DNA from: Escherichia coli
Lineage (GTDB): Bacteria > Pseudomonadota > Gammaproteobacteria > Enterobacterales > Enterobacteriaceae
Length of the DNA stretch: 64,000 bases
Assembly: GCF_003334355.1 (NCBI RefSeq)
Contig: NZ_QOWP01000024.1
Reading direction: 5' to 3' (one strand)
The notes beneath the pieces were generated by a model. It was not told where the DNA came from and searched no databases. It worked only from the letters and a program-made list of their open reading frames with translations. The position numbers and the translations under genes are program-made. Below, in pieces: positions 15,484 to 17,156 of this stretch (positions are counted from its first letter, which is position 1; every line of letters starts with the position of its first letter).

Positions 15484-17156
15484 ATGAATATAAAGACGCT
15501 TAACATCAGCCTTTTGTCTTTTTCTATTATTACAGCATTGTTTCCATTGAACGCGATGGCAACAAAATTAACCATAGAGCAGCGCCTTGAATTGCTTGAA
15601 AATGAATTGTCGCAAAATAAACAAGAGCTGAAAGCAACACAGAATGAACTGGGAGTATATAAATCCCGACTTTCGACCTTACAAAAAAGCATCACGGAAA
15701 ACAAATATAAATCAGCCTCGCTTGCTGAAATATCAGCGACATCTCCCGTCGCTGATAACATCAAAAATGAAAACGGTGAACAGAACTCGTCTGCCGCAGC
15801 GCATACTATAAATGGATCGCAGCAAGTTGCCGTTATTGAAAGTAAAGGCGACAAAACCACTATCGAAAGCGTGACCCTGAAAGATATCAGTAAATATATA
15901 AAGGATGATATTGGGTTCAGCTATCAGGGGTACTTCCGCTCAGGCTGGGGTACTGGTAATCACGGCTCACCACAAACTTATGCAGCGGGTTCTCTGGGAC
16001 GTTTTGGTAATGAGATGAGCGGTTGGTTTGACCTGACCTTAAATCAGCGTGTTTATAATCAGGAAGGTAAAACGGCAAATGCGGTCGTTACCTATGATGG
16101 CAACGTGGGTGAGCAGTATAACGATGCCTGGTTTGGTGACAGTGCCAATGAAAATATCATGCAGTTCAGCGATATTTACCTGACAACGCGAGGTTTTTTA
16201 CCCTTCGCACCAGAGGCAGACTTCTGGGTCGGCAAACATAAACTCCCGCAATATGAGATCCAGATGCTGGACTGGAAAACCTTAACCACGGATGTCGCCG
16301 CGGGTGTGGGGATTGAAAACTGGGCACTTGGTGTAGGGCTGTTTGATATGTCCTTAAGCCGTGATGATGTCGATGTTTACTCTCGTGATTTTTCGCGTAC
16401 CAGCCAGATGAATACCAATTCTGTGGATGTTCGTTATCGCAATATCCCGTTATGGGATGATGCGACATTATCATTAATGGCTAAATATTCCGCACCTAAT
16501 AAAACGGATCAACAACAAGATAACGAAAATGACAACAGTTATTTTGAAATGAAAGATAGCTGGATGCTGACTTCTGTTTTACGGCAAAACCTGCAACGCG
16601 ATACGTTTAATGAATTTACGTTACAGGTTGCCAATAATTCCTATGCCAGCAGTTTTGCCAGTTTCTCAGATGCCAGTAATACGATGGCGCATGGTCGCTA
16701 TTACTATGGTGATCATACCAATGGGATCGCCTGGCGTTTAATCTCTCAGGGCGAGATGTATCTTACTGACAATATTATTATGGCTAACGCGCTTGTCTAT
16801 TCTCACGGCGAAGATGTTTATAGTTATGAAAGTGGTGCTCATAGTGATTTTGACAGTATTCGCACTGTAATAAGACCGGCCTGATCTGGAATACATGGAA
16901 TCAGACGGGGCTTGAATTAGGCTGGTTTAAGCAACAGAACAAAACTCAGCAGGGTGTAACACTAAATGAATCGGCTTATAAAACGACACTCTGGCATGCA
17001 TTGAAAGTGGGTGAAAGCATTTTAGGTTCACGACCAGAAATTCGCTTCTATGGAACGTATATCAATATTCTGGATAACGAATTATCGAATTTTAAGTTTA
17101 ATGAGAACAGCAAAGACGAGTTTATGGCCGGCATCCAGGCGGAAGTCTGGTGGTAA
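15484..17156 (+). pseudogene. BglH-like carbohydrate-specific outer-membrane porin (LamB family), frameshifted near 16876-16884
   Basis: Signal peptide plus N-terminal coiled coil ([16 protein letters not shown]), collinear with K-12 BglH. The track ORF stops after ...SIRTVIRPA and the C-terminal 92 residues ([10 protein letters not shown]...AGIQAEVWW) continue in another frame to 17156. Confidence 0.7.

Follow-up and report, generated by a model that had tools for sequence, protein, structure and literature searches.

Evidence for a vertically inherited porin pseudogene in a decaying bgc-type operon of an Escherichia coli lineage that includes strain HS

A porin gene whose reading frame stops well short of the end of its family's domain raises the question of whether the break belongs to the bacterium or to the sequence and, if to the bacterium, whether a complete protein might nonetheless be made and what the loss says about the genes around it. 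Such a gene, a bgcH-like porin gene, occupies positions 15484-17156 on the + strand of the 64,000-nucleotide stretch of Escherichia coli DNA analyzed here (the window). Using comparisons with complete genomes, sequence profile searches, structure prediction and a survey of the lesions in the surrounding genes, we conclude with high confidence that the porin gene of this bgc-type island is a genuine pseudogene passed on by vertical descent, and that it lies in an operon that is decaying in a lineage to which strain HS belongs. The lesion itself is an ordinary one, already flagged by public annotation in about 70 related strains.

The frameshifted porin gene and its island

The 5' part of the porin gene (15484..16884, + strand) consists of 466 codons followed by a premature TGA, and its product ends in ...SIRTVIRPA; the stop comes 91 codons early, and what is left of the gene can be read in the -1 frame as far as 17156. 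Alignment with the intact 557-aa allele of strain 504237 revealed one gap (intact CCGGCCTGGATC versus window CCGGCCTGATC), and the lesion lies at 16882..16884 (+), where loss of one G from the TGG codon of Trp467 has made the TGA, the single remaining G being at 16883. The frameshift in a BglH-like porin that the original prediction had read from this stretch is thus real, as this single gap after a 466-aa open reading frame attests, and its remainder does run in another frame to 17156. Two particulars needed correction: the one-nucleotide loss, which had been placed within the neighboring ccggcc run, is of a G that adjoins the run on its 3' side and lies outside it, and the remainder, counted as 92 residues, amounts to 91. 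When one G is re-inserted the gene codes for a 557-aa protein that differs at 1 residue from the nearest intact allele, that of strain RM9513; the intact length of about 557 aa that had been predicted is borne out by this restoration as well as by the intact alleles. Strands 15-18 and the C-terminal ...AEVWW are encoded in the out-of-frame 3' remainder (16884..17156, +; codons 468-557 and the stop). The earliest start codon in its frame, a TTG at 17001, would give only 51 aa, and since the remainder has neither a usable start nor a signal peptide, a porin made in two pieces is not plausible.

In the window, the gene order along the E. coli chromosome is dgcZ, ydeE, eamA, an island of six genes, marB-marA-marR and marC, with eamA and marB flanking the island. 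The island comprises a divergent gene for a GntR/UTRA-type regulator (bgcR-like; 12445..13143, - strand; intact, 232 aa) and, on the + strand, genes for a PTS IIB component of the lactose/cellobiose family (bgcE-like; 13342..13653; intact, 103 aa), a PTS IIC component (bgcF-like; 13768..15089; in the window a pseudogene with a 1-nt deletion), a PTS IIA component (bgcI-like; 15117..15428; intact), the frameshifted porin, and a GH1 6-phospho-beta-glucosidase (bgcA-like; 17181..18620; intact, 479 aa, having an AGGAG ribosome-binding site of its own). The regulator, IIB and IIA genes were identified from their open reading frames, from the annotation of homologous loci (RefSeq, for the regulator) and from NCBIfam matches (GntR in the case of the regulator), and the glucosidase gene matches NCBIfam NF007154 at 1035.9 bits. 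A scan of the island for promoters and terminators returned only background-level signals. A hairpin with an 11-bp stem (TTTCCTCCAGTGCGATAGCTGGAGGAAA) and a T-rich tail lies in the spacer that separates the IIA stop from the start of the porin gene, at 15432-15459 (+), and could be an intra-operon attenuator or an mRNA-stabilizing element.

This gene content and order, namely a divergent GntR regulator with IIB, IIC, IIA, porin and phospho-beta-glucosidase genes, correspond to those of the bgc beta-glucoside operon (bgcR; bgcE, F, I, H, A). We take the window porin to be BgcH, the product of the fifth gene of that operon, and assume the same map position. The published operon is reportedly cryptic and prevalent in B2 strains, and, once its promoter has been activated, is said to let cells grow at low temperature on cellobiose, arbutin or salicin. 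The B2 uropathogen UTI89, in which the island is present with every gene intact, fits that prevalence. The part of PMC3585215 that cites Neelakanta, Sankar and Schnetz (2009, Appl Environ Microbiol 75:2284) describes bgc as a five-gene operon under positive control of the GntR-type BgcR. In the window, in contrast to the published system, the IIC and porin genes, two of the five in the operon, are frameshifted, so this copy could not work as described and is predicted from its sequence to be non-functional.

The porin gene was matched in 2553 of 5426 complete E. coli genomes, that is, about 47% have the island. The island hits labeled 'plasmid' gave no evidence of carriage on plasmids, being either 4.8-4.9 Mb records or the fragments of one urine isolate, all of them typed as non-mobilizable. 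Island-free strains may retain a bgcA remnant; the sole case examined (strain 2017.17.01CC, locus L029) represents a separate deletion and not the K-12-type empty site. In this strain the lost segment begins within eamA and stops 83 nt short of the end of the glucosidase gene, with the result that eamA is truncated and the entire island is gone. In strain SL112 a gene of the ECSE_1600-family type lies directly 3' of the porin behind ISVsa5, replacing bgcA and marB; the window has an intact gene for an 1806-aa AIDA-like autotransporter of the ECSE_1600 family at 40797-46217 (+) (NF011422, 4174.8 bits). On the dgcZ side of the island the window further contains a full-length match to the Rfam Hfq-binding sRNA STnc560 at 9690-9903 (+; 281.9 bits), directly downstream of dgcZ and opposite the small-protein genes mgtS/mgtT.

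Inheritance of the porin deletion

An exact 80-mer centered on the deletion was found in 71 of about 2550 island-bearing complete-genome records, the approximately 2480 others differing from it. These carriers, which include four separate assemblies of strain HS, were obtained by many laboratories from humans, pigs, poultry, a mouse, a dog, a capybara, a frog, river water and seawater, and in a protein collection the exact 466-aa product occurs on 779 contigs. All 21 fetched loci of this clade have the deletion, and in every one of them in which the porin gene is in one piece PGAP has labeled it 'frameshifted'. The window and ten of the fetched loci (11 aligned sequences, 7.9 kb) form one near-identical haplotype to which the intact haplotype of RM9513 is the closest, the clade and intact alleles being about 99.8% identical. 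Lengths of the clade type were seen in all of the best 60 matches to the island, and the intact length of 6302 in none. The original prediction had proposed a search for strains with an intact version; these turn out to be the rule, with an in-frame TGG in about 97% of island-bearing genomes. The gene therefore bears two marks of a genuine pseudogene: its reading frame is disrupted relative to intact orthologs, and the lesion is present in independent assemblies. The data show that the ancestor of an E. coli lineage that includes HS lost a single G from the Trp467 codon (TGG to TGA), and the porin deletion is a single inherited event.

Two explanations that would leave the cell with a full-length porin have to be weighed against this reading. 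An error of sequencing or assembly, with a true sequence of GG and an intact 557-aa protein, draws on the position of the site, a short GG dinucleotide adjoining a G+C-rich hexamer, and on the presence in the same window of a second 1-nt deletion, that in the C4 run of the IIC gene, which is rare among database records. However, two consecutive G's do not make an error-prone homopolymer, the identical deletion recurs in all 71 complete-genome records from unrelated projects, the four HS assemblies among them, and every fetched carrier has it on one haplotype. Because the same deletion occurs in these records, on a single haplotype and with its exact product on 779 contigs, error is excluded for the porin, and such a reading retains next to no probability; of the two readings offered by the original prediction, pseudogenization of a cryptic operon stands, and homopolymer-prone sequencing does not hold for this gene. 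Restoration of the full-length product by programmed -1 ribosomal frameshifting, transcriptional slippage or phase variation appears to us just as exceedingly improbable. The frame downstream of the lesion is still open and nearly unchanged, and a -1 shift near the GCC-TGA would yield a near-native protein; this openness is, however, accounted for by the youth of the deletion, given the near-identity of the clade and intact alleles. Inspection of the sequence before the stop (...ATA AGA CCG GCC TGA) for a frame-restoring signal found neither an X XXY YYZ slippery heptamer nor a long homopolymer, and the local RNA fold is not unusual (z = -1.5). Moreover, the great majority of island-bearing genomes encode Trp467 with an in-frame TGG, and the later insertions of IS elements into the same gene and operon argue that the gene is not under selection. 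We accordingly favor the inherited pseudogene over both.

The companion frameshift in the IIC gene, which had also been predicted, was confirmed in the window sequence as a contraction from C4 to C3 at 14405-14407; translation in frame ends after 216 of 440 aa, all 440 of which are regained when the missing C is put back. An exact 80-mer of this lesion matched 1 of 2504 island-bearing records, that of strain PSS-12 only, in which PGAP again calls the gene 'frameshifted'. In PSS-12 an IS5 element has inserted near ydeE and dgcZ contains a stop codon, two features absent from the window, and because the IIC deletion is shared with this different strain it is probably real, a point that also speaks against error as the general cause of the deletions in the window. 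Given its narrow distribution, the IIC lesion is much younger than that of the porin. Position 14360 of the window, within the IIC gene, is a private SNP, with C where all 13 other aligned sequences (10 from the clade, 3 intact) have T; this SNP and the lack of the IS5 insertion of PSS-12 together set the strain behind the window apart from every complete genome searched.

Porin family, fold and the predicted effect of the truncation

The intact allele matches the Pfam LamB domain (PF02264) over residues 147-557, covering model positions 1-378 of 378 (E = 2.2e-81), and also Sugarporin_N, the coiled-coil periplasmic N-terminal extension of maltoporins. In the window this domain is incomplete, since the open reading frame ends at residue 466 and approximately its last quarter is untranslated. 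By descent the window gene is thus a member of the LamB/ScrY/BglH family, and its product, as translated, is an incomplete one. The similarity to K-12 BglH (b3720) is pronounced: the restored protein is 53% identical to it over 541 aa and aligns to the last residue, which upholds the collinearity that had been asserted, and the two proteins share an N-terminal coiled-coil extension and a C-terminus of the form ...E(I/V)WW. Both are encoded in cryptic PTS beta-glucoside operons next to a phospho-beta-glucosidase gene. The two are nevertheless paralogs at different loci. The K-12 gene is intact (538 aa), whereas the window gene is cut at the equivalent of BglH residue 447, and the bgl operon has a BglG antiterminator and a fused EII, as opposed to the GntR regulator and split IIB/IIC/IIA of the window island.

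The relationship with the structurally characterized sugar porins is more distant. A single-sequence phmmer search of PDB with the intact porin recovered no porin even at E <= 10, and a profile of close orthologs recovered only a weak match to ScrY in PDB; a diverse profile of 47 homologs aligned end to end with both LamB (E about 1e-112) and ScrY (E = 1e-43), and in this profile alignment the window open reading frame ends at LamB residue 314 of 422. With a shallow alignment, made up of 23 sequences sharing 75-87% identity with the query, AlphaFold reached a pLDDT of only 29.6, and that model was discarded. The AF2 model retained for the intact porin has a mean pLDDT of 83.8, with values above 90 through most of the barrel, and displays an 18-stranded beta-barrel. 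Foldseek searches with it returned maltoporin and ScrY as the top hits, and it superposes on these 18-strand porins with TM-scores of 0.77-0.79 normalized by target length, even though sequence identity to them is only about 17-24%.

In this model residue 466 falls at the end of the fourteenth strand (453-468). The 466-aa product would retain the signal peptide, the coiled-coil N-terminal extension, strands 1-13 and most of strand 14, and would lack strands 15-18 (473-488, 493-508, 519-532 and 545-556). The loss of terminal strands that had been anticipated thus amounts to 4 of the 18 in a confident model. The C-terminal aromatic motif is also missing from the product, as its ...AEVWW is encoded in the out-of-frame segment 16884-17156. 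A length of 557 aa is common to all the orthologs in Citrobacter, Enterobacter, Salmonella and Kluyvera, and across the porin orthologs W556 is invariant and W557 nearly so. SurA and Omp85/BamA bind the aromatic motif that the C-terminal strand carries, and assembly is impaired when this motif is mutated (PMC2635482). Because it lacks both strands 15-18 and the ...EVWW motif, the 466-aa product is not expected to close into a barrel or insert into the membrane; it would probably be degraded in the periplasm, and no BgcH channel would be made.

Lesions across the operon and the question of selection

To place the porin deletion among the other changes in the clade we mapped the insertion sequences in its 6.3-kb island, which revealed 16 distinct insertion sites involving IS1, IS5, IS903, IS66 and ISKpn26. 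In window-equivalent coordinates, three of these lie in the regulator gene (12514, 12601 and 12674), one in the regulator-IIB intergenic region (13235), two in the IIB gene (13541 and 13632), four in the IIC gene (13910, 14320, 14444 and 14720), two in the IIA gene (15126 and 15237), one in the IIA-porin spacer (15476), one in the porin gene itself (16585; an IS903-type element at nt 1101 of the gene), one in the porin-glucosidase spacer (17172) and one in the glucosidase gene (17400). IS elements were present in the islands of 15 of the 60 best-matching clade genomes as against 1 of 56 full-length non-clade islands drawn from an evenly spaced sample of the species (Fisher p = 2.4e-4, which overstates the evidence because the genomes are not phylogenetically independent). 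Within the same clade genomes the density of IS elements is higher in the island, with 10 distinct IS events there versus an estimated 5-7 in 12.7 kb of flanking sequence (p = 0.008-0.026; the flank count is partly inferred from span lengths). The flanking elements, IS3, IS1 and IS5, lie at window equivalents 7563, 8955, 10117, 22332 and 23160, in ydeJ, dgcZ and yneK, next to ydeE and near ptrR; as ydeJ, dgcZ and yneK have also been hit in the clade, part of the excess in the island may reflect a generally high IS activity of the lineage. A smaller lesion is seen in the HS subgroup (loci L004, L010 and L011), in which the GntR regulator gene has lost 1 nt close to its 3' end (window equivalent 12452); the C-terminus is thereby altered, and the annotated product is 239 instead of 232 aa long.

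Among these changes the porin deletion is the oldest lesion of the island, being common to all members of the clade, and the others, namely the IIC frameshift of the window, the IS insertions and the frameshift at the C-terminus of the regulator, are later changes private to single strains or small subgroups. One founder lesion followed by scattered private ones is what relaxed selection across the island would leave in this lineage, and we infer that the operon is no longer maintained by selection there and is being dismantled. Given that the operon is reported to be cryptic in wild-type strains, the porin deletion may itself have been neutral and need not have caused the later decay. The near absence of such lesions outside the clade suggests that elsewhere the intact operon is still maintained by purifying selection.

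A different view of the founder lesion is that selection, and not neutral change, accounts for the loss of the porin, for instance through removal of a phage or colicin receptor or avoidance of the cost of a misfolding protein. Truncations of the gene have indeed arisen independently on several occasions. A different, B2-like haplotype has a nonsense allele, K483* (AAG to TAG), only 16 codons downstream of the frameshift (position 7447 of loci L027 and L028, or about 16930 in the window), which is recorded from 736 contigs and about 4 complete genomes; in the carrier L028 the IIC gene is also split, into parts of 353 and 84 aa. Other variants include a 533-aa allele, a 408-aa allele of Shigella boydii, internal and in-frame deletions and a porin-glucosidase fusion, alongside the IS903-type insertion. 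LamB, the closest structural relative, is a phage receptor according to the description of PDB 8xcj. The case against selected loss is that a porin encoded in a cryptic operon would rarely be exposed, that both truncated alleles are rare (71 records for the frameshift and about 4 for K483* among about 2550 complete genomes), and that in the clade the whole operon decays and not the porin alone, for which relaxed selection is the better fit. Phage lambda uses LamB, but to our knowledge no phage or colicin uses BgcH. The recurrent truncation remains the only hint of selected loss, and we regard that explanation as improbable. The compound reading, in which the bgcH frameshift was the founding event that freed the island from selection and the recurrent truncations reflect selection against display of the porin, strikes us as unlikely as well. 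Relaxed selection on the operon as a whole therefore remains our preferred explanation.

Pseudogenization in a known cryptic operon is an ordinary process, and its ordered course here is tidy but unsurprising, so that the novelty of the case is low. In terms of annotation, the porin open reading frame should be recorded as a pseudogene, neither as a 466-aa porin nor as a sequencing error to be 'corrected'. The deletion also provides a clean lineage marker for the HS-like group of E. coli. More generally, the island offers a natural and well-resolved case of the ordered decay of an operon, in which a founder lesion appears to have been followed by independent IS hits and small indels.
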